From: Halobacteriota archaeon
GTDB taxonomy: Archaea; Halobacteriota; Syntropharchaeia; DAOWMC01
DNA: 46,040 bases
Direction: 5' to 3'
Assembly (NCBI GenBank): GCA_034189535.1
Contig: JAXHUQ010000002.1
Coordinates: 1 to 46,040 of the forward strand
Part shown: positions 10,557 through 46,040 of the stretch, piece by piece
Position numbering within the stretch: position 1 is the first letter of the stretch
Layout: each line of letters begins with the position of its first letter
The notes under the pieces: generated by a model
Database searches by the model: none
The model's input: the letters and a program-made list of their open reading frames with translations, nothing else
What the model was told of the DNA's origin: nothing
Position numbers and translations under genes: made by a program

Positions 10557-10594
<38 letters not shown>

Positions 10595-10925
10595 TCTGAT
10601 TTTTTACATCGCAAGCAGTTATCTGATCCCAAATATCGTCCCTGTCTAGTGCAGTGGGTACGGGAGTTTCTGAATTTGCCCATTAGAGACTAGGATATTC
10701 ATTCGAACAGACTCGTGATCTTTTTAAGGATTTTTCGTCACGGTTAAGCTTTGCAAAAGGATGGATTGAACGGATTCCAGATGAAGATTTTAAGTATGAA
10801 TTGTTAGGTTGTTGAGTATAATCTCTTTGGTTTTTACCTGGCCTAAATTCTGAATCTTGATACGAGCTACGTCTGTGATACAATCACAACTTTTTTGTTG
10901 ATGACTGGGAAAGTAGCAGAGGTAA

Positions 10926-11837: not shown

Positions 11838-11843
11838 CATAAG

Positions 11844-11852
11844 TTTTTTTTT
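11844..11852 (+). terminator. T9 tract; candidate archaeal oligo-T terminator after guaAB
   Basis: Nine consecutive T read at 11844-11852, 7 nt after the guaAB stop. It sits in the 19-nt gap to the convergent MBL gene. Confidence 0.4.
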
Positions 11853-11856
11853 AAGA

Positions 11857-20194: not shown

Positions 20195-20632
20195 ATGCTA
20201 TCAAGACCGATTGATGTTCTGCTGGTGGAAGATAATCCCGGTGATGTGAGGTTGACTGAAGAGGCTCTTAAAGAGGGTGTAATGCGAATAAACCTGCACG
20301 TCACAAATGACGGGGTCGAAGCAACTAAGTTTCTAAAAAAAGAGGATGAATATGCTAATGCACCTTCTCCTGATCTGATATTACTCGATCTAAACATGCC
20401 CAGGAAGGGCGGACGTGAGGTTCTCGAGGAGATAAAAGCCGATGAGAATCTTAGGCGTATACCAGTTGTAGTCCTCACAACTTCGAGAGCAGAGGAGGAC
20501 ATTAAAAAGTCTTATGACCTTCACGCTAACTGTTTCATCACAAAACCTGTAGATATGGATCAGTTCGTCGAAGTGATAAAGTTCATAGAAGGATTCTGGT
20601 TCACAGTTGTAAAATTACCCGGAGGGTACTGA
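20195..20632 (+). CDS. Stand-alone response-regulator receiver (Rcp1/phytochrome-partner-like CheY type), RR1
   Basis: [20 protein letters not shown], phospho-acceptor [40 protein letters not shown]-terminal FIEGFWFTVVKLP. No output domain. Stop overlaps the next start (TGATG). Confidence 0.9.
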   Translation: MLSRPIDVLLVEDNPGDVRLTEEALKEGVMRINLHVTNDGVEATKFLKKEDEYANAPSPDLILLDLNMPRKGGREVLEEIKADENLRRIPVVVLTTSRAEEDIKKSYDLHANCFITKPVDMDQFVEVIKFIEGFWFTVVKLPGGY

Positions 20633-23763: not shown

Positions 23764-23792
23764 CGAAGATATAATTACACGGAGTGCAGGGG

Positions 23793-26372: not shown

Positions 26373-26421
26373 GTCAAACTCTTATCATTCACTAATTTTT
26401 GTAGAAGACAAGGTAAATGAT

Positions 26422-29019
26422 TTGAAGTTGGAGTTACAAAGTGCGAAGAATTTTCTCGATTTGGCAGATTCCATCTTCGTTGCTACAGATACAGACCATA
26501 ATATTATATTTGTTAATAAAAAGACCTGTCAAGTTCTAGAACAAGCAGAAGAAGATATTATTGAGAAGAATTGGTATGATACATTCATCTCAGATGGGGC
26601 AAGAGAAGAGGTGAAGAACGATTTTCAAAACCTTTTATTGAGAAGCAGAGATGAGACACATGTCTTTGAAGAGACCATAGAAGTAGTCTATGGCATAAAG
26701 AAGTCCATATTATGGAGTCGTAAGGTAATAAAAGATGATTATGGGGTTAATATTGGAATAATAAATACAGGAGAAGAAATAACATGTCAAAAGCGTATTA
26801 ATGAAGATTTAATTGATATTAAACAAAAATATAATACTTTATTCGAAAATAAGATTGAAGGAGTCCTTATTTTTGATGCCCAAACGATGAAGATAGTATC
26901 GGTCAACCAAACCGCAGCAGAACTTTATGGATACCGAGGTAAAGAAGAAGCAATTGGGAAAAGTCCGCTTGATTTTATCCCGGAAGGAGATAGAGCTAAT
27001 GTCTTTAAAGATATCACAAATGAGCTGTTCAAAAAGAATCTGAAAAAAGTTAGAGAGTACAGGACAGTAACAACGGAAGGCCAAGAGAGATGGATCGAGG
27101 TATACGGCAGTAGGATCGAATTTGAGGGTAAATTGGCAGGTCTGGTCATATTTAAAGATATAACAGAAAAAAGGAAGATAGAAGAGGAATTACGCCGATC
27201 AAAAAAGAAATATGAAAGCATCGTAGAAGGGGCAAATGATGGCATTATTATTCTCACAGCAGATCTGAAAATTGTATACGCCAATAAAAAAGTGACTGTT
27301 CTGTTTGGTTATTCAGCTGAAGAAGCATTAAAGATCGATTTACTCAAGGCAATTTGCCCCCACTCTTTAAAAGAGGCATTGAATTTATTCAAACGCAGGA
27401 TGGTAGATGAAGATACGGCTTCAACATACAATATTGACGTATTCCATAAAGACGGTCATGTTATACCTGTCGAATTGAGTAGCGCAAAGACCGAGTATGA
27501 GGGTAAACCGGCTGATATAATTTTTATTCGCGACATTTCAGAACGCGAGCAAGGAAAAGAGGTATTTGAGGAACTAAAAGGGAGTTATCAGGCTCTTATT
27601 GAAAATTCTCCGGATATAATAGCCCAATTTGATGTAAACGGAAAAATAATCACTGCTAATACCAAAACAGCAGAATTTTTAAATTTGTCCTTGAATGAGG
27701 TGATCGGCTGCAAGATCTCTGAACTGTTACCAAAAGAGTTCATGGGAAACGCCTTTAAGCTAATATTAAATTTAATCGGAAGTGATGAACCAAGTTCATA
27801 TGAAGATTGTGTGAACGGAAGATACTATCAGATCTATTTGACACCTGTCAAGGGCTTAGGTAAGATAAGGACTTTTCAGTTTATCGCTCACGATATAACC
27901 GATAGAAAAGATGTGGAAATGGAGGTTTTGTCCGGTAAAAGGGAACTTGAGGATATAATGAACAGTATGATCGATTCGGTGTTTATCGCTTCTCATAAAG
28001 CAAAGATTATCAACGTCAATGATTCAGCCGCGTCGCTTACGGGATATGATAAAGAAGAACTGATCGGAACATTTCCCACAATGATTATTAGTAAAGATTC
28101 CATCTCATCATTCTTCTACAATCTCAAAAAATTACAGGCAGGTACCAATGTAGAATCGTTGGAACTAACAGCTAAAAGAAAAGATGGTTCAGAGGTCCCA
28201 GTCAGCGTTAATATCTCATTTACAACTGATTTTGAGGGAAAGCCGGATAAACTGGTCGTTGTTTTACGAGATGTAACTGAACGCAAAAGATATGAGAAGA
28301 GACTTAAAGAGACGCTGGAGGATTATAAAGACTCAATGGGGGAGCTTGAACAGTTCACCTTTATAGCCTCACATGACCTGCAGGAACCTCTACGCATGGT
28401 GGCAAGTTTTGTTCAACTCTTGTCGTTGCGATATAGGGGCAAATTTGATTCCGATGCTGATGAGTACATAGACTATGCCGTCGAAGGTGTAAAACGTATG
28501 AAGGGGATGGTCGATGATTTGATGGCTTTATCAAGTATCGGTACAACAAATAAATCTTTAAAACTTGTAGAGTGTGAAAAGGTCCTCGATTTGGCTATTT
28601 CCGCTCTTGATACAAAGATAAAGGATAGCGGCGCTGAGATTTTGCGTGAACCATTGCCAGTTGTAATTGGGGACAATTCTCGGCTCATTGAACTCTTCAC
28701 AAACCTATTAGATAACGCTATCAAGTATAAGGGATCAGAATCGCCGCATATTCACATATCTTCTGAAGAAAGAGAAGGTAACTGGGTCTTCTCGGTACAG
28801 GACAACGGTATTGGAATTGACCAGGAAAATGTTGAGCACATCTTTAAGATATTTAGGCGTATGGACAAGAGACGATCAGGGACCGGAATCGGACTTGCGA
28901 CATGTAAGAGGATTGTACAGCACCACGGGGGAAGAATTTGGGTAAAATCAGGGCTAGGGATAGGAACAACATTCTACTTTACAATTCCGGTAATGAAGGT
29001 TGAGAAAGATGAACGGTGA
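26422..29019 (+). CDS. Soluble multi-PAS sensor histidine kinase HK3 (5 PAS modules + HisKA + HATPase_c)
   Basis: TTG start. It is the first canonical start codon after the in-frame TGA at 26353, with AGGT 7 nt upstream. H-box [20 protein letters not shown]-box LFTNLLDNAIKY. VQDNGIGI. GTGIGLATCKRIVQHHGGRIW. Confidence 0.85.
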   Translation: MKLELQSAKNFLDLADSIFVATDTDHNIIFVNKKTCQVLEQAEEDIIEKNWYDTFISDGAREEVKNDFQNLLLRSRDETHVFEETIEVVYGIKKSILWSRKVIKDDYGVNIGIINTGEEITCQKRINEDLIDIKQKYNTLFENKIEGVLIFDAQTMKIVSVNQTAAELYGYRGKEEAIGKSPLDFIPEGDRANVFKDITNELFKKNLKKVREYRTVTTEGQERWIEVYGSRIEFEGKLAGLVIFKDITEKRKIEEELRRSKKKYESIVEGANDGIIILTADLKIVYANKKVTVLFGYSAEEALKIDLLKAICPHSLKEALNLFKRRMVDEDTASTYNIDVFHKDGHVIPVELSSAKTEYEGKPADIIFIRDISEREQGKEVFEELKGSYQALIENSPDIIAQFDVNGKIITANTKTAEFLNLSLNEVIGCKISELLPKEFMGNAFKLILNLIGSDEPSSYEDCVNGRYYQIYLTPVKGLGKIRTFQFIAHDITDRKDVEMEVLSGKRELEDIMNSMIDSVFIASHKAKIINVNDSAASLTGYDKEELIGTFPTMIISKDSISSFFYNLKKLQAGTNVESLELTAKRKDGSEVPVSVNISFTTDFEGKPDKLVVVLRDVTERKRYEKRLKETLEDYKDSMGELEQFTFIASHDLQEPLRMVASFVQLLSLRYRGKFDSDADEYIDYAVEGVKRMKGMVDDLMALSSIGTTNKSLKLVECEKVLDLAISALDTKIKDSGAEILREPLPVVIGDNSRLIELFTNLLDNAIKYKGSESPHIHISSEEREGNWVFSVQDNGIGIDQENVEHIFKIFRRMDKRRSGTGIGLATCKRIVQHHGGRIWVKSGLGIGTTFYFTIPVMKVEKDER

Positions 29020-31351
29020 TGATTGCGGGCAAGGGGACCTTATCTTAATGGGTACGGACAGCACGAATGATATCCTTATTAGGGGTTACACTCTCGCTGA
29101 AAAGTATCTCATCGATAAAGAGACGATAATTGTTGCCCTCGATTCCGATCAAAAGATACAAAATATTAACAGATATGGATTGGAATTACTTAGATATACA
29201 AGGGAAGACCTTTCTGGATGTAGTTGGTCCGATCTATCTGTTTCAGATGGGAATAGAAAAGAAGTAGAGTCTTTACTTGCTAAAATTCTAAAAGAACCAT
29301 CAGAAGAGAGTATAGCTTACAAAGACACCTTATTGACAAAGGATGGTACGACTAAGCACTTTTCATGGCGAGTTACTGTGGTTTTGGAAGATTCGGGTGA
29401 TGCGGTTGGGGCGATACTTACAGGGGGGGTTATAGGCGAGAATTTATATGATAGAGAGGGTGTGTATTCTGCCATCGTTAATGGGGGAAGTGATGGCGTA
29501 ATAATTATGAAAGATCTGAAGGTTGTCTTTGCCAATCAGAAGATAGCTGAGATCACGGGTTATGATATTGAAGAGGCTAGAGAGATAGATCTGAAAAAGA
29601 TAACACCGCCTGAGCACTATATAAAGGCTGCTTCCAGATTCATTCGGAGAATGAAAGGTGAGGATCTGCCCCAGGCCCTGGAGATGGAAATTTTTCATAA
29701 AGACGGTCATAGGATCCCCATTGAGCTTAATAACTCAAGGATAGAATATGATGGAGGACCTGCAAGTGCCATCTATATCCGGGATATATCTGATAGAAAA
29801 AAGGCAGAAGAGGATGCAAAAAAGAATGAAGAGATGTATAAATTCCTCTACGACAATAACCATGCCATAAATATAGTTATCGGGCTAGATGGGACAATTT
29901 TAGATCTTAATCCTGCTGCAGCAAGACTACTGGGGTATGATGCAAAAGAAATCTTGGGTAGACATGCTCTTGAGTTTGTCAGTCTCTCTCAGCGGAGTTC
30001 TGCTTTTTGGAATATGATAAAAATCTTGCGCGGAGATACTGTTCCAAGCATTGAGCTCGAAGTTGTTACCAAGTATGGCGACTCTACACTTCTATTTGCA
30101 GAGGGAAAAGCCGTCAGATTTGAAAAAAACGGACAACAAGGTATCATACTTAGTGGAATAGATATAACTGAGCGAAAGATAACAGAAGAAAACCTGTTAA
30201 GGAGTAAAGAGCAATATCGCCTACTTGCAGATAACCTGAAGGACGTTATCTGGAGTATGGATATGGAACTGAAGATAAATTATATCAGCCCGTCTTCCAT
30301 AGAGATGTTTGGTATAGATCCTGAAGATGCGATTGGAAAGTCGATGATGAATCTGATGCCAAAGGAATCGACTGAGTCGATGATGAGGGGTATAAAAAAG
30401 AATCCTGATTTATTAAAAACCATAATAGAGATGCTGTCTGGACTTATAAGCTCAACAGAGATTATTAAACGATCAGACCTTCTTTCAAGACCATTAGAAT
30501 ATGAATATTATTGCCCTGATGGTAAAAAAATCTACGTCAGTTCAACGATGAATCTTGTTATAAATTCGGAGGGTGAAGCTGTCGGAGTTTGTGGTATCAC
30601 AAGAGATATTACCAATCTTAAGAGATCAGAAGAAGGACTGAAAGAGGCCCTTTACAACCTAAGAAGGTCTAATCAAGAACTTGAGCAGTTGACCTATATT
30701 GCATCGCATGACCTGCAAGAGCCTCTGAGGATGGTTGCAAGTTTTGTAGGAATGCTTTCTATCCGCTACAAAGATAAACTGGATTCAGAAGCAAAAGAGT
30801 ATATAGACTACGCAATCGATGGCGTAAAACGGATGAGAGAAATGGTCGACAATCTGATGGCTTACTCGAGTGTTTTAACCAAAGGAAGTCCATTTGAACC
30901 GGTAGACTGTGATATGATACTTGATCGTTCGCTTAAAAACCTATTATTAAGTATTAATGAGTCTGAAGCGGTAATAACGTCAGAAAAGTTACCGCAATTG
31001 TGGGGAGATCCTACACAGTTAGCAGTAATATTCAGGACACTCATCGAAAATGCAATCAAGTATCGCAGTAAAGAGAGACCGATTATTATAATCTCGTCAG
31101 AGAGAGAAGATGATCACTTCATTTTTAAAATTAAAGATAACGGAATAGGAATCGAACCTAAAAACCTAGAGAAGGTCTTCGAACCTTTCAAACGCATGAA
31201 TAAGAAGAGATCCGGTACCGGAATAGGTCTTGCGATATGTGACAGGATAATTCAGCGTCATGGTGGAAGGATATGGGTAGAATCAGAGCCTGGGAAGGGT
31301 TCAACGTTTTACTTTACTATTCCGGTCAAAGGAGGGGATAAAAATGAATGA
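29009..31351 (+). CDS. Soluble multi-PAS sensor histidine kinase HK4 (4 PAS modules + HisKA + HATPase_c)
   Basis: Track start TTG 29000. ATG at 29009 (MNGDDCGQ...) follows GAAGGT and overlaps the HK3 stop (29017-29019). H-box [56 protein letters not shown]. Confidence 0.85.
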
Positions 31352-31787
31352 AGAACGGTTAAAACCAATTGAGATACTCCTTGTGGAGGATAATCCTGGA
31401 GACGTAAGGTTGACCCAAGAAGCCTTCAAGGAAGGTAAGATAAAGAACAATCTGTATGTAGCAAAAGACGGTGTTGAAGCGATAGAATTTCTAAGGCATC
31501 AGGGTGAGTATTCCGATTCGCCTCGTCCTGACCTGATTCTACTGGATCTGAATATGCCAAGAAAGAGTGGTAAAGAGGTTCTTGAAGAGGTCAAGGCTGA
31601 TGAGGGGCTAAGGCGCATCCCTGTTGTAATCCTCACAACTTCCAAAGCAGAAGAGGATATATTCAGATCATACGATCTACATGCAAACTGTTTCATAACA
31701 AAACCAGTGGATATGGATCAGTTTATTGATGTTGTAAAGTTTATTGAGAGCTTCTGGTTCACTGTTGTGAGGTTACCGACAAGATGA
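31344..31787 (+). CDS. Stand-alone response-regulator receiver RR2 (Rcp1-like)
   Basis: [79 protein letters not shown]. Overlaps the HK4 stop by 8 nt and the HK5 start by 4 nt (ATGA). Confidence 0.9.
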
Positions 31788-34510
31788 CTGGTAAGAAGAT
31801 TGAGTCCGCAGGTTCTCTTCTGTTACTAAAAGAGCCTGAAGATAGCAGACAAAAAGATGAGTGGAGTGCAGCAGAGAGATATCTTGATTTTACAAAAGAG
31901 ATTATTGTTGCAATCGATCTTGATGAGAAGATTACTCATATCAACAGAGCAGGGTGTGAGACCTTAGGCATTCGAAGAGAGGAGATTTTTGGTGAGAACT
32001 GGTTTGAGATGTTCGTCCCGGAAAATTTAAGAGAAGATGCAAGATCTTACTTCAGAAGGTTGATCTTTGAAGATGGATATCATTCGGAACATTTTGAGTC
32101 TTATGCCATCGGAAGTGAGAGTCATGAAAAGATAATTTCATGGCACATCGCTGCCTTTGCAGATGAATCCGGTAATACAATAGGTGTACTTGGATCAGGG
32201 GAGGATATCACCGAACTAGTGGTAATGAAGGGTGAGTTGTCACAACAGATGGCGTATACGAAAGGAATTCTCGATAATGCACCCGATATGATACTGGTCC
32301 TTGATAGGAGATGGAAGATAACCTATGCAAACAACACTCTCGCAAAATTTGCGGGAATGAAAACAAATGAAGTTGTCGGTAAGGAATTGATGAGTGTTGT
32401 AAAGGAAGCGGGAATTCTGAACAGTAAATCGGTCAAAATATTGTCTGCACGTATGAAAGAGTGGCTTCAGACGGGAAAACCAATATCTGACGTTGAGTTA
32501 GACGCAATTGACAAAAATGGTGAAGAATTTTCCTTCAGCTACTCAACATCTGTTATCAAGGGTGAAGATGGGGACGTCATCGGAGAGTTCGTAATAATTC
32601 GTGATATCACTGAATCAAAGAAGGTAAAAGAGGTGATAGAAGAGAGTGAAGAAAAATACTCTTCACTTGTTGAACTTAGCCCGGATGCTATTATGATGAT
32701 CAGTGAAGCAAAAATCGTCTTCTGCAACAGCCAATATTACAAGATGCTCGGCATTGAAGATTATGATGTAGTTGGAAAGAGTGTCTTTGAACTTCTCAAT
32801 GGGATAATGAAAGATTCACTTGCCGTTTTAACAAAAGATGAAAGGCAAAAGATCGTAAAAAACCTTAAAGATGCAGCCAGAGGTGTCGTTGAACCACGTA
32901 GATATCAGATACCTGCAAGGAGATCCACAGGCGAGATGATATGGGTCGAAATATATGTTACTCCGATCACCTACAAAAAGAAGACTGCAGAGATGATCCT
33001 TGTGCGAGATATCACTGAGAGCAAAAGAGCTGAAGAGATCACCAAGATTGAGCATCAGAAATATCAGGAGGTTGTCGAAAACATCGATGAAGGGCTATTT
33101 AATATGGATCTGAAAGGTAGGGTCAGACTCATCAACCCGAAGATAGCCGAAAAGGTGACCGGGTATGACATGGATGAGATTGAAGGAAAATCCCTTACAA
33201 TGCTTGCACCAAAAGAAGAGATGCCTGCCGCTATATCTGTCATCCAAAAGGTCCTTGGTGGGAATAAGATTCGCAACTTTGAGACGGTGCTTAAGAAGAA
33301 GGATGGTACTATTGTTCCTTTCCTCATGTCTCTTACACCCAAGATGAAGGATGGTAAAATTTACGAGATATTTGGCGTTGTAAATGATATCAGTGAGAAG
33401 AAAAACGCCGAAGAGAAAGCAAGGGTCGTACAGGAGCGGTATAAGACGGTAGTTGAAAATATCGGAGAAGGGCTATTTATACAAGATGCAACAGGAGTCA
33501 TAAATTATGTCAATCCGGAGATAGAGAATATAACTGGCTACAGCGCACGCGAACTGATCGGATCGAACTTTGCAAATCTTCTGTCAAAAGATGTTCGCAA
33601 GATTATATTACCGGGTTTCGGTAGACTCATGAAAGGAGAAACTCTGCATAATCTCGATATTAATTTTACAAGAAAAGACGGAGAAGAGATCTTTATAGAA
33701 ATTACTATAACGCCATATCTAAAGAAAGGTAAAATTACAGAGATAACAGGCGTTATTCGAGATATAACCGAGAGGAAGGAGTCAGAAGCAATTTTGAATA
33801 AGACTTTATCCGATCTCAAGCATACCAATAAAGAACTTGAGCAGTTTGCATATGTTGCCTCTCATGACTTGCAGGAGCCGCTCAGGATGGTGGGAAGCTA
33901 TGTGCAACTCATCTCACGTAGGTACAAAGGCAGGTTAGACGATGATGCCGACGAGTTTATAGAGTATGCTGTTGACGGTGCCAGGCGTATGCAGAATATG
34001 ATCAACGACTTACTCACCTATTCACGCGTTGGGACAAGGGGAAGTCCATTTAAGCAAATAAACTGCGAAGAGATCATAAGAAATGTAACTATAGATCTTT
34101 CAATACTGATTGAGGAGAATAATGCATCGATAACTCACGATCCTCTGCCTGTCGTGTGGGCCGATGAAGTACAGCTTATACAGCTATTCTCAAATCTTAT
34201 TGGAAACTCGATCAAGTATCGCCGTGAAGATAATCCAAAGGTTCATATTTCGGTTGAAAAGAGTGCTGACAATTGGTTATTTTCTGTACAGGACAACGGA
34301 ATGGGAATAGACTCGGTTTATAAAGAAAATATATTCAACGTCTTCAGTAGAATGGATAAAAGACAGTCGGGTACTGGAATTGGTCTTGCAGTATGTATGA
34401 AGATAGTTAAGCGTCATGGTGGCAATATTTGGGTCAAATCAGAATTAAATAAAGGTTCAACATTCTATTTTACAATTCCAACAAGGAGAAAATTTGATGA
34501 TGAAGAATAA
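31784..34510 (+). CDS. Soluble multi-PAS sensor histidine kinase HK5 (5 PAS modules + HisKA + HATPase_c)
   Basis: 908 aa with no TM segment. H-box [60 protein letters not shown]. Confidence 0.9.
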
Positions 34511-34943
34511 CATAGATGAAGCTGTTGAAATACTACTTGTGGAAGATAACCCTGGCGATGTAAGATTGACGCAGGAAGCGTTCAAAGAAGGCAAGATAAA
34601 GAATAATTTACATGTAGTCGGGGATGGTATTGAAGCTTTAGAATTTTTAAGGAATGAAGGCGAGTATGCGGATGCTCCTCGTCCCGATCTTGTGCTACTC
34701 GATCTGAATATGCCGAGGAAGGGAGGTAGAGAGGTTCTTGAAGAGATGAAGGCAGATGACGATCTTAAAGGCATCCCTGTTGTGATTCTCACTACATCAG
34801 AAGCAGAGCAGGATATACTCAGATCATATGATATGCAGGCAAACTGTTACATAACAAAACCGGTAGATGTGATGCAGTTCTTCCAGATCATTCACTACAT
34901 CGAGGATTTCTGGTTTACTATTGTGAAGTTGCCGGGAGGTTGA
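34494..34943 (+). CDS. Stand-alone response-regulator receiver RR3 (Rcp1-like)
   Basis: [78 protein letters not shown]. Overlaps the HK5 3' end by 17 nt. The next gene starts 1 nt after its stop. Confidence 0.9.
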
Positions 34944-34944
34944 G

Positions 34945-36570
34945 ATGACTAAGACTAAAAATACAACGGTCCTACTGGTAGAAGACAACCCAGGGGACGC
35001 ACGTCTTATAAAAGAGATGCTAAAATTCAGCAGCACCACAAGATTCGAGCTCACACAAGTTGAGAGTCTAAAAGATGCAATCGAGGTTCTTGAAGAGGAG
35101 TCTTTTGACATTATCCTCTCGGATCTCGGGCTCCCTGACAGCTGGGGACTTGATACCTTCAACAAATTACACATTCATGTGCCGAGGGTCCCAACCATTG
35201 TGCTGACCGGGCTAAACGATGATGTCACCGGTACAAGGGCGGTGCGCGAAGGTGCACAGGATTACCTCATAAAAGGACAGGTGGATGGGGATATTCTGTC
35301 AAGGGCCATCCATTATGCCATAGAGCGAAAGAAGAGTGATGAAGCATTAAGAGAGAGCGAAGAGAAGTACTCTGCACTTGTAGAGTTGAGCCCTGATGGA
35401 ATAGTTCTATTGCAAGCTGGCAAGGTGATATTTGCAAATAATAGCATATATAGACTCTTTGATATTGATGAATCAGATTTAATCGGTGGAGATATTTTTA
35501 AACTGATGAATGGTTCATTAAAAGATGCTATGGATGTATTGAATGGCCAGGAGAGGAGTTTAATAATAAATAACCTATCAGAAGCTGCAAGAGGAAATAT
35601 AACGGCCAGAACATACCGATTACCTTCAAAGAGGAAGTCAGGAGATATAATCTGGATTGAGGTCCATGTCACTCCGATCATGTACAAGGGAATAACTTCA
35701 GAGCTGATCCTCTTCAAGGACATCACAGAACAAAAGGAAGCCGAACAATCAATTAAGGAGAAGAATAAGGAGTTACAGGTGATGGGAGAAGAGCTACAAG
35801 AACTCAACCTTAATCTTGAAAACAAGGTAAAAGAGAGGACGATAGAGGTTGAAAATCTTCTGAAACAGAAGGATGAATTTGTTAATCAGCTCGGGCATGA
35901 CCTTAAAAGCCCACTTACACCCCTTGTAACGCTCTTGCCCATAATTGAAGAAAGAGAGAAAGATTCTGAACTTAAAGAACTACTCGGAATAAGTATCGAG
36001 AATGTCAATTTCATGAAGGAGCTTGTTATAAAGACACTCTCACTTGCGAGGTTGAATGCGCCAAATACAAAGTTCAATATAGATGAAGTAAAGCTCTCAA
36101 AAGAGGTTAAAACGATCTTTTACACCAAACAACAGATATTCATTGAGAGAGGTATATCGACAGAAAATAAGGTTCCAGAGGGACTGATTGTAAGAGCGGA
36201 TAAGTTGAGGCTCGATGAGTTATTTGACAACTTGATAACAAACGCAATCAAGTATAGCAACGAAGGCGGTTCTATAACGATAGATGCGGAAGATAATGGT
36301 GATTTCGTTAAAGTTTCAATCAAAGATACCGGCGTTGGTATGGCCGAAGAGCAGTTGAGCCATATCTTTGAAGAGTTCTACAAGGTAGACCCATCAAGAC
36401 ACGATCTTGATTCTTCCGGTCTCGGACTTTCGATATGTAAACGCATTGTCGAGAAGCACGGTGGAAAGATATGGGCTGAAAGCCCCGGAGAAGGTAAGGG
36501 CACAACATTCTACTTCACGATCCCTGCTCTAAGAGTGGAAGAGGAGGAGATGTTAGTTCTTGCTTATTAA
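34945..36570 (+). CDS. Hybrid REC-PAS-histidine kinase HK6 (N-terminal receiver, 1 PAS, coiled coil, different HisKA type, HATPase_c)
   Basis: Receiver: [42 protein letters not shown] related to HK1 module 3 and HK5 module 3. H-box FVNQLGHDLKSPLTPL (EnvZ-like, unlike the SHDLQEPL cores upstream). N-box LFDNLITNAIKY. IKDTGVGM. SSGLGLSICKRIVEKHGGKIW. Confidence 0.9.
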   Translation: MTKTKNTTVLLVEDNPGDARLIKEMLKFSSTTRFELTQVESLKDAIEVLEEESFDIILSDLGLPDSWGLDTFNKLHIHVPRVPTIVLTGLNDDVTGTRAVREGAQDYLIKGQVDGDILSRAIHYAIERKKSDEALRESEEKYSALVELSPDGIVLLQAGKVIFANNSIYRLFDIDESDLIGGDIFKLMNGSLKDAMDVLNGQERSLIINNLSEAARGNITARTYRLPSKRKSGDIIWIEVHVTPIMYKGITSELILFKDITEQKEAEQSIKEKNKELQVMGEELQELNLNLENKVKERTIEVENLLKQKDEFVNQLGHDLKSPLTPLVTLLPIIEEREKDSELKELLGISIENVNFMKELVIKTLSLARLNAPNTKFNIDEVKLSKEVKTIFYTKQQIFIERGISTENKVPEGLIVRADKLRLDELFDNLITNAIKYSNEGGSITIDAEDNGDFVKVSIKDTGVGMAEEQLSHIFEEFYKVDPSRHDLDSSGLGLSICKRIVEKHGGKIWAESPGEGKGTTFYFTIPALRVEEEEMLVLAY

Positions 36571-36576
36571 GATGTG

Positions 36577-36582
36577 TTTTTT
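36577..36582 (+). terminator. T6 tract after the last kinase gene; candidate oligo-T terminator
   Basis: gtgTTTTTTa read 7 nt after the HK6 stop. It is the only T-run of 6 or more at any gene junction of the nine-gene array. Confidence 0.3.
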
Positions 36583-36620
36583 ATCAAACCATTTATCATC
36601 TCGTTTCTCATACTCCCTTT

Positions 36621-37736
36621 ATGCTTTCAAACTTTGATGATATCAATATAAAAGAGCTCTCTGAGATTTACGATTCTGAAAACAAGGATACATTCATTAC
36701 TCTTTTTTTAAATATAGAAAGTTACGATGACAAATTCCTTGAAAAAAGGAAAAAATCCTGTATATCTGTTCTCAAGGGAAATAAGGATCTTCTTACCAAT
36801 TTTAACAGAACAGTAAAGATGATAGAAAGATATCTAAAAAAGATGGCGAGGGAGAAAGATCTGAAGGGACTTGCACTCTTTGCATCTCACAAGAACAACT
36901 TTTTCAGGGCGTATAAATTGAGAATCCCACTTGAGGATATGATGGTTGTAGACACATCACCATACGTCAGACCCCTGGTACGATTGATCGACGAGTATGA
37001 ATCATTCGGACTTGTTCTTCTTGATAGTCACAGGGCGGAAATCTATGTAGTCTCTTCAGGCAAAATCGAGGTTGAGGGAGAAAGGGTTAGCGATATCATG
37101 AACAAGCACAAGAAAGGGGGATGGTCGCAGGCCCGTTTTCAGAGATTAAGAGAGGGTGCGATAGATCATTTTTTAAAGGGAGTCGTAGAAGATGTGGAAA
37201 AGATCTCCAGTGATGAAGAGATTAAGAGGATAGTTATAGCCGGTTCGGGTAACGCGAAGAAGACGTTTGTTGATATGATCCCAGCTGGTATTAAATCGAA
37301 TGTTATTGATGTTATTGACGTCGAGTTTGACCAAGCAGAGGGTAGACTCATCTCAAAGGCAGAAAAAATTGTCTTCGAGGATGAGAAGAAGAGAAGTGAT
37401 GGGAATATTGAGAAATTAAGAGAAGAGATCCTAAAAGATGGGCTTGGTGTCCATGGCCTAAAAGAGACGTTAGATGCAGTTGAAAATGGCCAAGTGGATA
37501 CGCTTCTTGTAAGAAAAGGTCTCAAGGTCAGGGGATGGATATGTGAGAAGTGCCAGTCTGTAGGTCAGGGACATGTGAAAATTTGTCCGAACTGCGAGAG
37601 TGAAACTTCAGAAGCTGACATGATCGAGGAGATCATTGAGTTCGCCGAGAGAAAAGAGACTGTAATTGATTTCGTGGAAGGTAATCAGATGCTTGAGAAA
37701 CTCGGAGGAATAGGTGGACTCTTGAGGTATAGATAA
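36621..37736 (+). CDS. eRF1/Pelota-superfamily protein of the Vms1/ANKZF1-like (VLRF1/baeRF1) type with C-terminal zinc ribbon
   Basis: 371 aa. MNKHKKGGWSQARFQRLRE (nt 37116-37130 = GGWSQ) aligns with the aRF1/eRF1 loop KHGRGGQSALRFARLR but carries G-x-x-Q instead of GGQ. Downstream IVIAGSGNAKK and GQVDTLLV blocks resemble eRF1 domains 2 and 3. CEKC...CPNC (C308, C311, C322, C325) forms a zinc ribbon. Confidence 0.6.
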   Translation: MLSNFDDINIKELSEIYDSENKDTFITLFLNIESYDDKFLEKRKKSCISVLKGNKDLLTNFNRTVKMIERYLKKMAREKDLKGLALFASHKNNFFRAYKLRIPLEDMMVVDTSPYVRPLVRLIDEYESFGLVLLDSHRAEIYVVSSGKIEVEGERVSDIMNKHKKGGWSQARFQRLREGAIDHFLKGVVEDVEKISSDEEIKRIVIAGSGNAKKTFVDMIPAGIKSNVIDVIDVEFDQAEGRLISKAEKIVFEDEKKRSDGNIEKLREEILKDGLGVHGLKETLDAVENGQVDTLLVRKGLKVRGWICEKCQSVGQGHVKICPNCESETSEADMIEEIIEFAERKETVIDFVEGNQMLEKLGGIGGLLRYR

Positions 37737-40433: not shown

Positions 40434-41459
40434 ATGAGAGTTGCAATGTATTATAATAACAGTGATCTGCGTCTGGAAGAGTTACCTATCCCAAGCATCA
40501 GTAGCCGTGAATTGCTTGTAAAAGTGATAGCAAGCGGAATATGTGGTAGCGATGTTATGGAGTGGTATCGCATCAAAAAAGCTCCTCTTGTGCTCGGTCA
40601 CGAGATCACAGGCGTTATTGAACAGGTTGGTAGCGATGTGAAATCATTCTCTACCGGTGACAGAGTCTTCGTCTCACACCACGTCCCATGCAACAGTTGC
40701 AGGTATTGCCTAGATGGGAGATACACCGTCTGTGACACCTTGCACACAACCAACTTTTATCCGGGAGGTTTCTCTGAGTACCTGCGTGTCCCGGAGATAA
40801 ATGTTGATCGTGGAGTCTTTTTGTTACCTGAAGAGATATCGTTTGAAGATGGTACATTCATAGAACCGCTTGCATGCGTACTACACGCTCAGAGGATGGT
40901 GGGTCTCAGGGCTGGGCAGAGTGTGCTTGTCATCGGAAGTGGGATATCCGGTCTCTTGCACATCAGGCTCGGAAGGGCGCTTGGTGCATTCCGCATCTTT
41001 GCAACCGATATAAATGACTATCGTCTTGAGATGGCGAAGATATCTGGAGCATACGGAATGATACACGCAGAAGAGGACGTACCAGAACGTCTCAAGCAGT
41101 TGAACGATGGAAGACTTGCAGATCTTGTGATAGTATGTACTGGCGCTCCTTCTGCTATTGATCAGGCCTTAAAATCCGTGGACAGGGGGGGAACAGTTCT
41201 ATTCTTTGCCCCTTCAAAACCTGACGTCTCTGTACCATTCCCACTCAATGACTTCTGGAGAAACGAGATTACAGTTACAACATCATATGCAGCAAGTCCT
41301 AGTGACATATCGACTTCTATCAGGCTCCTGCAATCAAAGAGGGTGGAGGTGAGCGATCTCATCACCCATAGACTGAGCCTCTCAGAAACAGGAGAAGGCT
41401 TCAAGCTTGTCGAGAGCGGTGGGGAATCAGTAAAGGTCATCATCGAGCCACAGAGATGA
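40434..41459 (+). CDS. Zinc-dependent medium-chain alcohol/polyol dehydrogenase (threonine/sorbitol dehydrogenase-like)
   Basis: Track start TTG 40410. ATG 40434 gives MRVAMYYNNSDLRLEELPIP, typical for the family N-terminus. Catalytic Zn GICGSDV...GHEITGVIEQVG. Structural Zn CNSCRYCLDGRYTVC. Rossmann VLVIGSGISGLL. Confidence 0.85.
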   Translation: MRVAMYYNNSDLRLEELPIPSISSRELLVKVIASGICGSDVMEWYRIKKAPLVLGHEITGVIEQVGSDVKSFSTGDRVFVSHHVPCNSCRYCLDGRYTVCDTLHTTNFYPGGFSEYLRVPEINVDRGVFLLPEEISFEDGTFIEPLACVLHAQRMVGLRAGQSVLVIGSGISGLLHIRLGRALGAFRIFATDINDYRLEMAKISGAYGMIHAEEDVPERLKQLNDGRLADLVIVCTGAPSAIDQALKSVDRGGTVLFFAPSKPDVSVPFPLNDFWRNEITVTTSYAASPSDISTSIRLLQSKRVEVSDLITHRLSLSETGEGFKLVESGGESVKVIIEPQR

Positions 41460-41474
41460 AGTGTATGGAGGGAC

Positions 41475-41489
41475 TTTTGTCTCTTTTTT
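41475..41489 (+). terminator. T4...T6 tract after the ADH gene; candidate oligo-T terminator
   Basis: cTTTTgtctcTTTTTT read 16-30 nt after the ADH stop. Confidence 0.3.
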
Positions 41490-41853
41490 AAATATACCGG
41501 ATGAAATAATAATTATTGTATGATTTTTATTCATCCAGAACGTGCGAGTTACAGGGCTTGAGGGATGAATACAATCATAGGAGTATAGCAGAGAGAGTAG
41601 TAATATCTTTTAAGAAGGTCGTATTTTGTTATATTAAAACAAGCCCGCTGAGACAGATTTAGAAAGAAAAAGTACAGAATAATCGACGAACGCTATTATG
41701 TTTGCAGGTATTATACTCCTTTTTGTTGGATTATATAAGGTTTCTACTGAGTCAATTAATATTTTAACTCACATCAATTGAAGATTACACTAGCCGATTA
41801 CCGTATTTTTTGTTACAATTCCGATTGTTTTTATATGTACTTGCAATAGATAA

Positions 41854-42069
41854 CGAATCCGGGACTATTCCGGTAGAGCATCACTATGGTTTGGCGAGAT
41901 AAAGGATGGTGATCGAGTTATCGTCAGTGGCCTGTTCAGGGCGTCTGATGGGACTATCATAGCAGATGATGTGAGCAAAGCTCTTATTTTTGGAATACCT
42001 GGATTTGAAGCCGTATTTGGAATAATAGGATTACTTGCAGTAGCTTTCATCCTGTTAAGATCAAGATGA
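41854..42069 (+). pseudogene. Start-less C-terminal remnant of a PGF-CTERM-anchored (archaeosortase-A substrate) surface protein
   Basis: Hand translation of the + strand after TAA (41851-41853): RIRDYSGRASLWFGEIKDGDRVIVSGLFRASDGTIIADDVSKALIFGIPGFEAVFGIIGLLAVAFILLRSR* (stop 42067-42069). PGF (41998-42006) + hydrophobic helix + basic tail is the PGF-CTERM tripartite signal. The 71 codons contain no ATG, and the only GTG leaves about 30 aa. The track ORF 41865..42050 (-) is its antisense shadow. Confidence 0.6.
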
Positions 42070-42404
42070 CGTTTTTTAGGGTAATAAATCGGGATAGATG
42101 AGGATTACTCTTCGTTTTATATCTATCATTACCACAAGATATGCTACTGGGAATTTACCTTTCCTAATAGCTATGTTTTTAAAAGTTATATTGTTGCATC
42201 GAGTGTGGTTACAGTTTAGGTAACTATAAATTTCGAAGTTGAAAATACGGTTTATGGCTCGATAGGGGAAAACTATATTTTGACTCAGTACTATTCACAA
42301 AAAAGAAGGTTTATTAAAAAAACCTTATTAAATCCACGTACTTCAAGAGCAAATTATTGTGGCTGAGTTTGGAAAAGGGGGAGACTAACACCTTTTAGAA
42401 CTGG

Positions 42405-42440
42405 CATATAAAAGTTAAATTACATTACCGTTTATAAAAG
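42405..42440 (+). promoter_or_regulatory. Two TATA-box-like elements upstream of the AAA+ gene
   Basis: CATATAAAAG (42405-42414) and TTTATAAAAG (42431-42440) lie 27-62 nt upstream of ATG 42467. AAGGA Shine-Dalgarno-like sequence at 42453-42457. Assignment is by position and archaeal TATA consensus only. Confidence 0.3.
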
Positions 42441-42466
42441 AAGTATTTGATAAAGGATGATATTAC

Positions 42467-43492
42467 ATGAGAAGTGATTTGATAAAGAGATTATTTCAAG
42501 CTTATGCTGAATTTGATAACGTTAAATTTATTGAAACTGCAAACGAAATTATCAAAGAGGAAGAAAGAAAGAAGCACAATTTATTAGCTAAAGATCTAAA
42601 AAAAATCATTTCTTCTAAATCACAACTAAATTTTGAACCGAATAGAATATCAAAGCGTTATAAATCTAATGTACCTATTCCAAGAGATACCGAAAAAGGT
42701 TTTCCCCTACTTGAACTTAGAGAGTATTATTATAGTTTAGACGATGTGATTTTAACCGATGAACTTAAAGAAAGGGTCCAATATGTACTTGAAGAGCTTA
42801 AATCTACTGAAGTTCTTAGCACATTTGGATTAAAACCAAAGCGAAAGATACTTTTTTGCGGTCCACCCGGTACAGGTAAAACATTAAGTTCTAAGGTTAT
42901 CAGTTCTGTTATCGATTACCCATTGGTTTATATTAGATTTGATTCCATAGTTTCTTCTTATTTAGGTGAAACTGCAACAAATCTGAGAAAAATCTTTGAT
43001 TTTATTGAGCAAGGTGAGTGGGTCGTATTATTTGATGAATTTGATATTATTGGTAAAAAAAGAGACGATCCCTATGAACATGGGGAGATAAAGCGTGTTG
43101 TTAATAATTTTATGCAAATGTTAGATAATTGTGAAGGAAATAGTCTTATTATTGCTGCAACAAACCACCAGCAATTATTGGATTCCGCGATATGGAGGCG
43201 GTTTGATGACATTTTATATTTTGATTTGCCTGACATACATCGTAGAGAACAGTTGTTTAACAAATATTTAAAAGTATTAAAAAGGCAGAAAAATCTTAAT
43301 CTATCCAAAATAGCTGATATTACGGAAGGCTTTTCACCTGCAGATATTGCTCAAGTATGTGAAGAGGCCCTAAGGAGAGTTATTGTAAGTAACAAGGAAA
43401 AAATTAGTTATGAGGATATCATTTTGGCAATTGACCAACAGAAACGTATGAAAAATGTAACAGAGGATGGTGATTATGGCAGGAAGATATGA
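42467..43492 (+). CDS. Classical-clade AAA+ ATPase (IetA-like), single ATPase module behind a helical N-domain
   Basis: 341 aa. Walker A FCGPPGTGKTL. Walker B VVLFDEFD. Sensor-1 IIAATN. Second region of homology LLDSAIWRRFDDILYF (Vps4/spastin-like LD.A..RRF). C-terminal lid FSPADIAQVCEEA. No TM segment or signal peptide. Confidence 0.85.
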   Translation: MRSDLIKRLFQAYAEFDNVKFIETANEIIKEEERKKHNLLAKDLKKIISSKSQLNFEPNRISKRYKSNVPIPRDTEKGFPLLELREYYYSLDDVILTDELKERVQYVLEELKSTEVLSTFGLKPKRKILFCGPPGTGKTLSSKVISSVIDYPLVYIRFDSIVSSYLGETATNLRKIFDFIEQGEWVVLFDEFDIIGKKRDDPYEHGEIKRVVNNFMQMLDNCEGNSLIIAATNHQQLLDSAIWRRFDDILYFDLPDIHRREQLFNKYLKVLKRQKNLNLSKIADITEGFSPADIAQVCEEALRRVIVSNKEKISYEDIILAIDQQKRMKNVTEDGDYGRKI

Positions 43493-45575
43493 ACACTTAA
43501 CACTACCATTTGTTCCCGAAGATTTCTTACGCAAAAAAAGGAGGGGTTGGTCTGAATATAAAAAAGTGGAAAGAAGCAAGAATGAATTCTATAAAACTGA
43601 AATTCAAAAATTTAATGGGATCCAACAAAAACACAGAGCTGAAAAGAACAGATTTAAAGAATATCTTGATCCAAATCTAATTTTTAAGATTGAAATTAAT
43701 CAAAATGTATCTGAAGAAGCTTTTAAGACAGAATTGAAACGTATGGATACTGAAGTCATCTCTCCATCCCCTGATAAAAAAGGTTATTGGGTTGTATTTG
43801 CAGAAGATGAAGAATTTGAAAAATTTCAGAGTAAGCTAAAAGATTATGCAGGAGATATTGAAGATAAAAAATATTCTTTTTTCAATGCTATTGATGGAAT
43901 CTCTGACATCCCTTCTGAAGAGAAGATTGGAGAATATCTTCAAAAAGAACCTTTTGAGGAGGATGAATATTCTTCTTTGGACATAGAAATATGGAGAATG
44001 GACGATGACAGACTAAATGAGTTCTTAAAAGGATTTAAAAGGTTAATATCTGGAAAAAATGGAGAGACCGTTGATGGGTTTGTCACTGAAAATTTTTGTC
44101 TTATGAAGGTAAAGGTTGGTAAACAGTTGTATGAAGATATTTTAAGTTTACGTGAAATAGCTCATGTTGATAGACCGCCAAAAATAAAATTGGAAACACC
44201 GTTAGATATAGACATTGAAGAACTAAATATCGGTAGTAAACCACCAGAAGATGCCACTGGAATTTTGGTAGTTGATTCTGGAATTCTCTCAAGTCATCCA
44301 TTGTTAGAGAATGCTGTGGGAGACGAAATTGCAGTGGGTACAAGATACAGTACAAATGTTTCGGAAGACAGACCTTATGATGACGTGGGACATGGGACAC
44401 AGGTTGCAGGATTAGCCCTTTATGGAGACATCGATGAATGTATTAGAAATAGAAATTTTGACCCCGAAGCATGGATATTCTCTGCAAAGGTGATGTTTAA
44501 AGACGAGTATGGTTATGCTACTTATGATGAAGATGAACTACTTGAGCACCAGTTAGATGAAGCTGTTAGAAGAATTGTAAAAGAATATTCAAAATGTAAA
44601 ATTATAAATTTATCAATTGGAGATTCCGCAAAAAGAATGTATGAAGGAAAGCGGCAATTCAATCTTGCTGCCCTTGTCGATGAATTATCCAAAGAACTAA
44701 ACGTAATTTTTGTTGTATCTGCAGGAAATTATGAGTATCAGATTCAAGATGAGTATCCAAATTTTCTATTAGATGATTCGACAGATAGGGTAAAAATCAT
44801 TGATCCTGCAACATCTGCGCTTGCTTTAACTGTTGGCGCATTATCTAAGAATGCTATAGATGAGGCTCTATTGGAGGATCTTGTAGGATATCCTTCACTT
44901 ATAACAAGGGTGGGACCGGGATATAAAGGAATGATTAAACCAGAACTCGTAGAAAATGGAGGTGATGGGTTCGACAGGGAGTTTGACGTTATTACAATTA
45001 ACCCCCATTGGATTGAGGATGGATGCCTCTTCACAAAAGATTGCGGAACAAGTTTTAGCGCCCCTAATGTTTCAAATTATATTGCAAGACTGATGAACAA
45101 ATTTCCCGACAGATCCCCTAATCTGATTAAAGCGTTATTGATTTACTCAGCATCAATTCCTGAAAAAAGACCCGCAATCTTGTCTGAGATAGGTATAAAC
45201 GATAGTGATAAAAAAGCTATGAACCTTTTAAAAGTATATGGATTTGGGAAGCCAAACTTTGATAAATGTATTTTTTCCGAAGATAATCGAGTAGTTTTGC
45301 TCCGTGAGAATACGATTAAACCAAATAACATTCATGTGTACCCAGTTTATTTATCCAAGGAATTTATTGAAGAAAAAGGAAATAGACAAATCTCTGTAAC
45401 ACTTGTATTTGATCCACCGATAAACAAAAATAGAGTGGAATATCTTGGAGTGGCTATGGAAACACATCTTTTCAAAAATATACCGATAGAAAATGTGATT
45501 GGCAAATATAGCTCTGAAAAGATAGGTGACAAGGAAGAGATAATACCAGAGGATATCAAAAAGAATGAAATCTGA
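43467..45575 (+). CDS. Cytoplasmic S8-family subtilisin-like serine peptidase (IetS-like), ended by an in-frame TGA
   Basis: 702 aa. Catalytic Asp ILVVDSGI, His VGHGTQVAG, oxyanion Asn VVSAGN, Ser CGTSFSAPNV. About 260-aa non-catalytic N-region. No signal peptide. Start 43467, or ATG 43476 lying 8 nt after GAGGA. Overlaps the AAA+ gene 3' end by up to 26 nt. Confidence 0.85.
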   Translation: MVIMAGRYEHLTLPFVPEDFLRKKRRGWSEYKKVERSKNEFYKTEIQKFNGIQQKHRAEKNRFKEYLDPNLIFKIEINQNVSEEAFKTELKRMDTEVISPSPDKKGYWVVFAEDEEFEKFQSKLKDYAGDIEDKKYSFFNAIDGISDIPSEEKIGEYLQKEPFEEDEYSSLDIEIWRMDDDRLNEFLKGFKRLISGKNGETVDGFVTENFCLMKVKVGKQLYEDILSLREIAHVDRPPKIKLETPLDIDIEELNIGSKPPEDATGILVVDSGILSSHPLLENAVGDEIAVGTRYSTNVSEDRPYDDVGHGTQVAGLALYGDIDECIRNRNFDPEAWIFSAKVMFKDEYGYATYDEDELLEHQLDEAVRRIVKEYSKCKIINLSIGDSAKRMYEGKRQFNLAALVDELSKELNVIFVVSAGNYEYQIQDEYPNFLLDDSTDRVKIIDPATSALALTVGALSKNAIDEALLEDLVGYPSLITRVGPGYKGMIKPELVENGGDGFDREFDVITINPHWIEDGCLFTKDCGTSFSAPNVSNYIARLMNKFPDRSPNLIKALLIYSASIPEKRPAILSEIGINDSDKKAMNLLKVYGFGKPNFDKCIFSEDNRVVLLRENTIKPNNIHVYPVYLSKEFIEEKGNRQISVTLVFDPPINKNRVEYLGVAMETHLFKNIPIENVIGKYSSEKIGDKEEIIPEDIKKNEI

Positions 45576-45833
45576 TTACATCTAGGCGTTAGTTTACGGA
45601 AGAAAGGAGTGCATCAGAGAGGTATTAAACAATTTAAAGTGAGAACAAATATCAATGTAGATAATCCCCTTGTTTTAGTAGTGATCTGCCAAAACCGGTG
45701 GATTAAAGACGATAACTACAGGCAAGAATATGCAGTTATTGTATCAATTGAACACTCCAAAGAAATTGATTTGTATAATCAAATCCGCCTCAAGAATAAA
45801 GAAAAGGTTCAAATTTCGATTCACACAACTTAA
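45576..45833 (+). other. In-frame continuation of the S8 peptidase reading frame after the TGA at 45573-45575 (85 sense codons + TAA)
   Basis: 45609 - 43467 = 2142, which is divisible by 3. The 11 codons between the TGA and track ORF 45609..45833 (tta cat cta ggc gtt agt tta cgg aag aaa gga) contain no stop. Reading: ...IKKNEI*LHLGVSLRKKGVHQRGIKQFKVRTNINVDNPLVLVVICQNRWIKDDNYRQEYAVIVSIEHSKEIDLYNQIRLKNKEKVQISIHTT*. Confidence 0.5.
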
Positions 45834-45924
45834 GTCTACATTGGATAAATAAAACACATAAAATGGATTAATGGGGAAAAAATAATCGATTTTATTGTTG
45901 ATATAGTTAAAAGATAGACAATGA

Positions 45925-46040
45925 TTACTTCTTCTCCTTCCCCGCCTTCTTGACAGCCTTCACAACATCTCTTGTGCTGACCCTGTGTGTATGAAGTCCC
46001 AGATGTTTGTCCTTCATCCCAAAGGCCATACCGAGAAGCT
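45925..46040 (-). CDS. 3' end of an unidentified gene entering from the right window edge
   Basis: Hand translation of the minus strand: ...LLGMAFGMKDKHLGLHTHRVSTRDVVKAVKKAGKEKK* (stop = complement of 45925-45927). Composition returns to the higher-GC, core-like style. Product not recognised. Confidence 0.45.
   Translation of the reverse strand, partial: LLGMAFGMKDKHLGLHTHRVSTRDVVKAVKKAGKEKK

Follow-up and report, generated by a model that had tools for sequence, protein, structure and literature searches.

The 46,040-nucleotide (nt) stretch of DNA analyzed here, termed the window, covers positions 1 to 46,040 of the forward strand of contig JAXHUQ010000002.1 from a Halobacteriota archaeon (assembly GCA_034189535.1). 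It carries two co-directional genes, ietA and ietS, coding for an AAA+ ATPase and for a subtilase of the S8 protease family. We assign a probability of roughly 70% to the following interpretation: the pair is a horizontally acquired IetAS cassette of the Y4kL/Y4kK clade in an uncultured archaeon related to Methanosarcinales, its toxin is most likely inactive, and the cassette was recently disabled and is decaying. The ietA gene (42467..43492, + strand) codes for an intact ATPase of 341 amino acids (aa), the predicted antitoxin. The open reading frame (ORF) of ietS (43476..45575, +) encodes 699 aa of the S8 protease and ends at a premature in-frame TGA (45573..45575, +), which is followed by an orphaned C-terminal tail (45576..45833, +) of 85 in-frame codons and a TAA at 45831-45833. 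It is the loss of this segment that makes the toxin most likely inactive and the cassette a decaying one. The toxin is probably dead and the antitoxin retained, the order of decay to be expected for a toxin-antitoxin (TA) pair.

IetAS was reportedly presented as an anti-phage system by Gao et al. in 2020. A protease-toxin/ATPase-antitoxin pair had been reported in 2009 (Yamamoto et al., as cited in PMC8562856 and PMC13069673). In bacterial members IetS acts as the toxin and IetA as its antitoxin, defence needs the protease active site, and IetA mutants could not be constructed (PMC13069673). The same source calls the molecular mechanism 'unknown'. An initial annotation of this stretch had presented the pair as undescribed or understudied; undescribed it is not. 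In a minimal mycoplasma, deletion of the ATPase alone was lethal, and the pair acts as a TA system in Escherichia coli (PMC8562856). In Bacillus cereus m1293, ietAS confers abortive infection that is triggered by expression of YosG of SPbeta (Stokar-Avihail et al., bioRxiv 10.1101/2022.08.27.505566), in agreement with the abortive-infection logic that had been suggested for the archaeal pair.

The following scheme may account for these data. As shown by the published genetics, the cytoplasmic subtilase IetS is toxic when unrestrained, and IetA is required to keep it harmless. We propose that a hexameric IetA restrains IetS by ATP-driven remodelling or by holding it via the central pore. A viral trigger protein, as published for B. 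cereus ietAS, would break this restraint, and the freed IetS would proteolyse cellular targets and arrest the infected cell. At the window locus, where ietA is intact, the presumed nonsense mutation at codon 700 of ~785 in ietS would take away a conserved, well-ordered C-terminal segment of the domain after the catalytic core.

Premature stop in ietS and the fate of the protease

IetS matches the Pfam family Peptidase_S8 (E 4.1e-32, residues 266-594). Its catalytic set, numbered from the ATG at 43476, consists of Asp267, His306, Asn418 and Ser526. The corresponding columns (D268/H307/N419/S527 in the numbering of P0002, the closest full-length homologue) are invariant across 70 homologues and kept in the window, and the Asp, His and Ser residues also align with the S8 active site of subtilisin. 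The N-terminus is charged, and neither a transmembrane (TM) segment nor a signal peptide was found in IetS (maximal 19-residue Kyte-Doolittle mean 1.24). These results bear out the initial reading of a cytoplasmic S8 subtilase with a complete Asp/His/Asn/Ser set.

The structure of IetS was studied on the AlphaFold model of P0002, which is 69% identical to the window protein (predicted local distance difference test score (pLDDT) 84, predicted template modelling score 0.75). The model opens with a long helix at the N-terminus, which is followed by two beta-alpha-beta-beta-alpha(-beta) modules, by the S8 core and by a C-terminal beta-rich region made of strands 604-665 and 713-760 and a terminal helix 766-783. 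Its top Foldseek matches among PDB folds are ProN-Tk-SP and KP-43 (3afg, E 4e-23; 1wmd, E 8e-19), followed by PCSK9, Kex2 and furin. A PDB sequence search with IetS returned only generic subtilisins at E values of at least 5e-7 and no IetS-type structure. Homology of the N-terminal alpha/beta modules to subtilisin propeptides was not supported: six N-terminal segments gave no match to Inhibitor_I9 at E <= 10, leaving a prodomain-like reading with the predicted module topology and the Foldseek match to ProN-Tk-SP.

The premature TGA maps to residue 700 of P0002, or codon 700 of ~785. It aligns with the Lys of 'NEIKLHPG' in most homologues, the site being occupied rarely by Arg, Met, Phe, Ser, Thr, Asp or Asn, and the ietS frame around it reads KKNEI-TGA-LHLGVSLRKKGVHQRGIKQF. 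The ORF listing of the window gives two + strand genes at 42467-43492 (341 aa) and 43467-45575 (702 aa), and downstream, in the ietS frame, a third ORF of 74 aa (45609-45833, +), a look-up of which returned no record. The subtilase had been annotated as having at least 702 aa; this is the length of the ORF, but the in-frame TGA and the continuation of the frame to the TAA had been missed. The truncated protein matches the PADLOC IetS profile PDLC02198 with E 7.8e-105 (residues 47-688 against profile positions 38-694 of 795). Adding the tail extends the match to positions 39-784 and raises the score from 350 to 372 bits. Homologues have 780-810 aa and span 99% of the sequence obtained by read-through. 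Among the 120 best IetS matches the C-terminal truncation is unique, with the tail kept in 119/119 of the others; five other short sequences in this set are cut at the N-terminus and retain the tail.

The missing segment is conserved across the family. It contains 21 columns with conservation of at least 90%, including the invariant P703 and R708, and G704, K709, G711, H713, Q714 and K715 are near-invariant. At such columns the window sequence deviates at 4/21 positions after the stop and at 3/157 before it (Fisher p = 0.004), and the invariant tail Pro is replaced by Leu. By this comparison the window tail shows signs of relaxed constraint. In P0002 the segment comprises three strands (713-720, 732-740 and 750-760) and the helix 766-783, with pLDDT of 87-97 over residues 701-770 and of 63 over 771-780. 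The TGA thus removes three strands and the terminal helix and leaves the first four strands of the beta-rich region, from which we infer that the truncated IetS would be misfolded or unstable.

The stretch LxPGxxLRKKGVHQKG (P0002 701-715), located just past the window stop position, counts among the family's best conserved sequences outside the catalytic ones. It could serve as a handle for IetA or as an autoinhibitory loop.

Several points weigh against the main interpretation. The TGA is known from one assembled consensus. The tail is 64-68% identical to homologues and has no second stop or frameshift, which indicates that the stop event is either recent or artefactual. The loss of function is deduced from the model of a homologue with 69% identity, and the C-terminal beta-domain is dispensable for activity in some subtilases (Tk-SP). 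Scores below the NCBIfam cut-offs and 22-30% identity to IetS of E. coli and Rhizobium plasmids mean that function is extrapolated across a wide family, and no experimental test of any archaeal IetAS was found in the literature.

The best of the competing explanations, an unlikely one in our estimate, holds that the system is intact and functional and that the real IetS has 785 aa; the TGA at 45573 would then be either an error of the assembly or its consensus, or an allele carried by a minority. The unbroken 85-codon frame of the tail, whose identity to homologues is similar to that of the rest of IetS, speaks for this explanation. However, the stop lies outside any homopolymer (AAATCTGATTAC), and the excess of tail changes at conserved columns, including the invariant Pro, is unexpected under selection. 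An exact-pattern scan of Joint Genome Institute (JGI) metagenomes for a second copy of the stop region gave 0 matches. Variation between assemblies or within the population does occur at this locus, another point in favor of an intact system: an A8 homopolymer in ietA (42598..42605, +) is A7 in an independent assembly. That contig (Logan SRR24907505_382586, positions 1-1546) matches window positions 42158-43704 at 1546/1547 nt, the sole difference being a one-nt gap in A8, and its A7 allele frameshifts ietA after about codon 46. The A7 allele stems either from an artefact in the homopolymer or from loss of the antitoxin in part of the population. If real, it implies that IetS is already harmless, since only then would the change be tolerable. 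The Logan assembly supports a dead toxin to this extent, and it may equally carry a homopolymer artefact.

We give a comparably small chance to an artefactual or leaky stop in a Methanosarcinales-type archaeon with a working IetAS, or to the variant in which an intact ietA is kept after toxin loss as an 'anti-addiction' antitoxin. A working IetAS would provide the first demonstration of abortive infection by an AAA+-gated protease against archaeal viruses, in a system freely exchanged between Bacteria and Archaea. In the variant, IetA would neutralise any IetS that arrives with an invading element, for example the provirus-like element of Methanosarcina mazei.

Somewhat more doubtful is a truncated IetS that remains an active, regulated protease, so that the pair defends the cell without its C-terminal 85 residues. 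In its favor, the catalytic domain is intact together with its four catalytic residues, and a fully conserved ietA is expected if the toxin still needs neutralising. Nevertheless, the tail is present in all 119 other homologues compared and holds LxPGxxLRKKGVHQKG, the stop interrupts a predicted beta-rich domain instead of coinciding with the edge of a domain, and the frameshifted ietA allele of the other assembly would be lethal next to an active protease.

Two further explanations were rejected. A housekeeping role of the pair in protein quality control, as a chaperone with its protease, has very little in its favor: the resemblance of the IetA module to the PAN, Cdc48 and FtsH unfoldases and the location among metabolic genes in the window and in a Methanolobus metagenome-assembled genome (MAG) would fit it, but the pair is foreign in composition, missing at the corresponding site in the closest relative, distributed patchily between the domains, flanked by defence or mobile genes in 6/7 loci, and strongly matched by the Iet profiles. 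Recoding of the TGA, by selenocysteine or programmed read-through, would explain the open frame beyond the stop and can be dismissed as the least credible, because the site is taken in homologues by Lys, or now and then by another ordinary residue, and never by Cys or a stop, the stop is absent from close relatives, TGA is the ordinary stop of 18/34 window genes, and an Rfam scan of 41300-46040 (E <= 1) gave no match and hence no selenocysteine insertion sequence or other RNA element.

IetA and the assignment of the pair

IetA is a classical AAA+ protein with a single module (Pfam AAA, E 2.6e-27; AAA_lid_3, E 1.8e-09). The motifs that had been read from its sequence are present: GPPGTGKT at residue 132, LFDEFD at 188, AATN at 230 and WRRFD at 243. 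They correspond to Walker A (132-139), Walker B (D190-E191), sensor-1 (N233) and the arginine fingers R244-R245, with the pore loop at Y165-L-G. In an alignment with 44 homologues, all 54 invariant columns are retained in the window protein, among them K138, S163-S164-x-L166-G167, D190, E191, N233, R244 and R245. The elements that are invariant among homologues include pore loop 1 (S-S-Y/F-L-G), the region of pore loop 2, sensor-1 and the two arginines.

The structure model of IetA (pLDDT 83.5) starts with a three-helix bundle, in line with the helical N-domain of the initial annotation, and continues with a disordered linker, the motif IPIPRDxEKGFPLLE, which is strongly conserved in the IetA family, and the AAA module. 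Its top Foldseek matches are Rpt/PAN, p97/Cdc48 and FtsH, and the PDB sequence match is to the D2 module of Cdc48/p97 (E 1.8e-61). NCBIfam profiles rank PAN first (135 bits), followed by FtsH (126), CDC48 (123) and CdvC (101). With intact conserved pore loops and arginine fingers on a PAN/Cdc48/FtsH-like module, IetA looks like a protein-threading AAA+ motor. Placement of the ATPase in the Vps4-CdvC-katanin meiotic clade was rejected, since the PAN, FtsH and CDC48 profiles outscore CdvC and the fold matches agree; the earlier description as Vps4-like was not specific, the closest relatives being Cdc48/p97 D2, PAN/Rpt and FtsH.

Profile searches confirmed the two proteins as an IetA/IetS pair of the Y4kL/Y4kK-type clade of the AAA+ ATPase antitoxin/S8 protease toxin family, the Iet identity that had been suggested for them. 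IetA matches the PADLOC profile PDLC02196 with E 1.3e-96 (residues 5-332 against positions 6-328 of 374), and IetS carries the precomputed domains PF27210 and PF27160 (named Y4kK_2nd and Y4kK_N) and PF00082. The pairs of a rhizobial plasmid, an E. coli IncF plasmid and M. mazei have the same best PADLOC models as the window pair. The rhizobial and M. mazei pairs score near the window pair, and the E. coli pair scores lower on both models, by much more for IetS. The equivalog cut-offs of NCBIfam IteA_antiphage and IteS_antiphage are not reached (245.2 against 510 bits for IteA, 122.9 against 900 for IteS). The window proteins fall below this narrow equivalog and for this reason are named just 'ATP-binding protein' and 'S8 family peptidase' in databases.

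The best-supported predicted start of ietS is the ATG at 43476, which is preferred because it reproduces the family N-terminus MxExxEHLxLPF and agrees with the database gene call of 699 aa. A GAGGA sequence lies ~10 nt upstream. The alternative ATG at 43467 gives the 702-aa product. The initial annotation allowed for up to 26 nt of overlap between the genes. The overlap is real, but comes to 17 nt from the preferred start, 26 nt being the upper bound.

Genomic setting and distribution

The window ietAS is horizontally acquired and lies in a compositionally foreign islet. The islet (41460-45923) has a GC content of 33.6% against 41.0% in the rest of the window, which is below the minimum of 740 same-size windows elsewhere (mean 40.7%, standard deviation 1.5, minimum 37.1%), as expected from the AT-rich acquired islet of ~41.46-45.92 kb that had been proposed. 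The GC content at third codon positions (GC3) is 24% in ietA and 27% in ietS, compared to 34-49% in the other window genes, with the exception of an orphan gene at 9631-10335 (18%).

The host is, judged from its genes, an archaeon related to Methanosarcinales, and the window is a chromosomal fragment. Subunit B of its GMP synthase is 72-75% identical to Methanosarcinales proteins. Other genes code for PAS histidine kinases and response regulators, which form a long array, and for an aRF1-like protein, an alpha/beta hydrolase, a metallo-beta-lactamase (MBL) and a zinc alcohol dehydrogenase (ADH). The closest genome that the searches returned is the MAG of a 'Halobacteriota archaeon' (locus L008), in which ADH is 86% identical at the protein level and the order hydrolase, MBL, small TM protein and ADH is kept at 74-79% nucleotide identity. 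According to blastn, the nucleotide homology stops 7 nt past the ADH stop codon, the last block ending at 41466, which places the left edge of the variable region at 41460..41466. Beyond ADH, L008 carries a different cargo: a helix-turn-helix protein, an ORF that we interpret as endonuclease-like, and a 349-aa candidate for PADLOC PDC-S11 (E 1.7e-39). The difference in cargo marks the site downstream of ADH as a variable accessory or defence spot, and as judged from this alignment ietAS is a presence/absence polymorphism between the window and L008. The synteny comparison at ADH thus came out as the proposal of an acquired islet predicts. In L008 the cargo at the ietAS-equivalent site spans 9113-12112, and a serine recombinase is encoded upstream of the syntenic block (4844-5635).

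Within the islet, ietA is preceded by a decayed remnant of a PGF-CTERM surface-protein gene (41854..42069, +) of 71 codons with upstream stops and no start codon, whose translation matches NCBIfam TIGR04126 PGF_CTERM with 27.7 bits (cut-off 24.5); this is the gene remnant that had been noticed beside the pair. A TATA-box-like TTTATAAAA (42431..42439, +), ~30 nt upstream of the ietA ATG, reads as a candidate archaeal promoter. To the right, an intergenic spacer (45834..45924) separates the tail from a minus-strand gene with its stop at 45925-45927, in which GC content, judged by eye over the last ~115 bases without computed values, is higher again. A tRNA scan covering all of the window was negative, repeats searched for between 40 and 46 kb were short chance-level pairs, none of them, direct or inverted, bracketing the islet, and no att-like borders or integrase were identified at the islet.

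A search with IetS recovered 656 proteins at E < 1e-10. The nearest are metagenomic (62-69% identical), and the named ones include Candidatus (Ca.) Methanogaster (67%), Methanolobus (57%), M. mazei (54%) and Aenigmarchaeota (52%), with a Geoglobus MAG locus at 53% (tblastn). At ~50% identity archaeal IetS proteins are interleaved with those of Brocadia, Nitrospirota, Deltaproteobacteria and Dehalococcoidia. Helarchaeota and Hodarchaeales (Asgard archaea) have relatives of IetA as well. Full-length IetS was not found in phage genomes by tblastn. Archaeal IetAS is accordingly known already at the database level, with hundreds of close homologues that PADLOC would label routinely. The initial annotation had regarded an archaeal version as new territory, which goes too far: M. 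mazei, Methanolobus, Ca. Methanogaster and Geoglobus have the pair, Aenigmarchaeota have IetS, and Asgard archaea have IetA.

Nine related loci, retrieved through IetS, were compared. The ietA gene is directly upstream of ietS in all nine, and the identities of IetA and IetS to the window pair co-vary (78/67, 77/68, 71/65 and so on down to 34/30%). Six of the seven distinct archaeal or metagenomic loci have a restriction-modification (R-M), defence or mobile-element setting. For instance, a type I R-M operon of Ca. Methanogaster (L002, 3789-13962) houses ietAS between its hsdM and hsdS genes, accompanied by two Fic genes and a HepT/MNT pair; this locus resembles a composite defence island that arose as insertions entered the R-M operon. 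In M. mazei (L004, 7677-22358) the pair is part of an integrated provirus- or plasmid-like element with an integrase, MCM, a GINS-like gene, a large terminase and a D5 primase. The cassette adjoins SIR2, an Eco57I/MmeI-type (BREX-like) methylase and a PLD-SNF2 protein in L088, a type I R-M operon in L089, and AbiTii, a resolvase and an integrase in L091. In the Methanolobus MAG, as in the window, ietAS stands alone among metabolic genes. The GC content of ietAS is 32-36% in all six of these loci, with flanks of 36-50%. The constantly low GC content and the defence contexts point to a mobile defence or TA cassette that crosses the domain boundary.

Some other features of the window were noted. 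The orphan gene at 9631-10335 (-), of 234 aa, forms a second AT-rich patch (GC 30%, GC3 18%); it has no match in Pfam, NCBIfam or PADLOC and is probably another foreign insertion. A 66-nt AT-rich element is shared, with 80% identity, between window positions 10443-10507 (-) and L008 positions 9498-9563 (+). It contains a TTTAAAATA box, in both genomes precedes AT-rich accessory genes that are unrelated to each other, at a distance of ~75-110 nt, and may be a shared promoter or the end of a mobile cassette. The co-directional array at 20195-37736 (+, 17.5 kb) comprises five multi-PAS histidine kinases, one hybrid kinase that combines a receiver with PAS and kinase domains, and three proteins that are receivers alone; its last gene codes for a paralogue resembling aRF1/Pelota (Pfam baeRF_family10, E 9e-25), with a score under the equivalog cut-off for aRF1. 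The 34 window genes end with TGA (18), TAA (14) or TAG (2), and this avoidance of TAG may fit a pyrrolysine-decoding host of the Methanosarcinales type.

Relation to known systems and significance

The window pair shares with anti-phage IetAS the ATPase-first two-gene operon, a cytoplasmic S8 protease as the second gene, the same best PADLOC models and intact motifs. It differs in its archaeal host, the nonsense-truncated ietS, the IteA/IteS scores below cut-off and, with respect to enterobacterial plasmid IetS, an identity of only ~22%. The pair also resembles IetA/IetS of Agrobacterium pTiC58 and rhizobial y4kL/y4kK, which have the same gene order and the same Y4kK_N and Y4kK_2nd domains. 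The rhizobial pair scores 293 (IetA) and 446 (IetS) PADLOC bits, the window pair 322 and 350 (372 with the tail). Identity to the rhizobial pair is 30% for IetS and 34% for IetA, and the window pair occupies a chromosomal islet rather than a plasmid-stability locus. By its description, mycoplasma TA132/133 is likewise a chromosomal ATPase-antitoxin/S8-toxin pair with signs of horizontal transfer, with the antitoxin gene upstream and no intergenic gap, although its host is bacterial (PMC8562856). The ietHAS system, which combines IetAS with an SNF2 helicase (PMC13069673), has the IetA/IetS core in common with the window, where no helicase gene is adjacent.

Both proteins also resemble better-known enzymes. 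IetS has the layout of Tk-SP, KP-43 and the kexin/furin-type subtilases, with N-terminal alpha/beta modules, an S8 core and a C-terminal beta-rich domain. In contrast to these secreted, self-activating proteases, it is cytoplasmic and partnered by an ATPase. IetA has in common with PAN/Rpt, Cdc48/p97 and FtsH the classical-clade AAA module, an aromatic pore loop and a second region of homology with two arginines. It differs from them by its private three-helix N-domain, its single AAA module and the lack of a fused or docked proteasome-type protease; moreover, according to the published genetics its partner is an S8 enzyme that is restrained rather than fed.

Taken as a whole, the locus is probably a new archaeal-host member of a known and widely distributed family, from a clade abundant in archaeal and environmental data, and this copy is probably inactivated. 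It would be a poor experimental starting point unless ietS were repaired and adds little beyond its family-level value. As a natural example it is informative on the order of TA decay, with the toxin lost first and the antitoxin retained, and it marks a variable site for defence cargo downstream of ADH in the host lineage. The pair also documents the inter-domain spread of the ietAS cassette, and its clade, which is large, well conserved and covered by confident structure models, can be used to study how a threading ATPase restrains a cytoplasmic subtilase.

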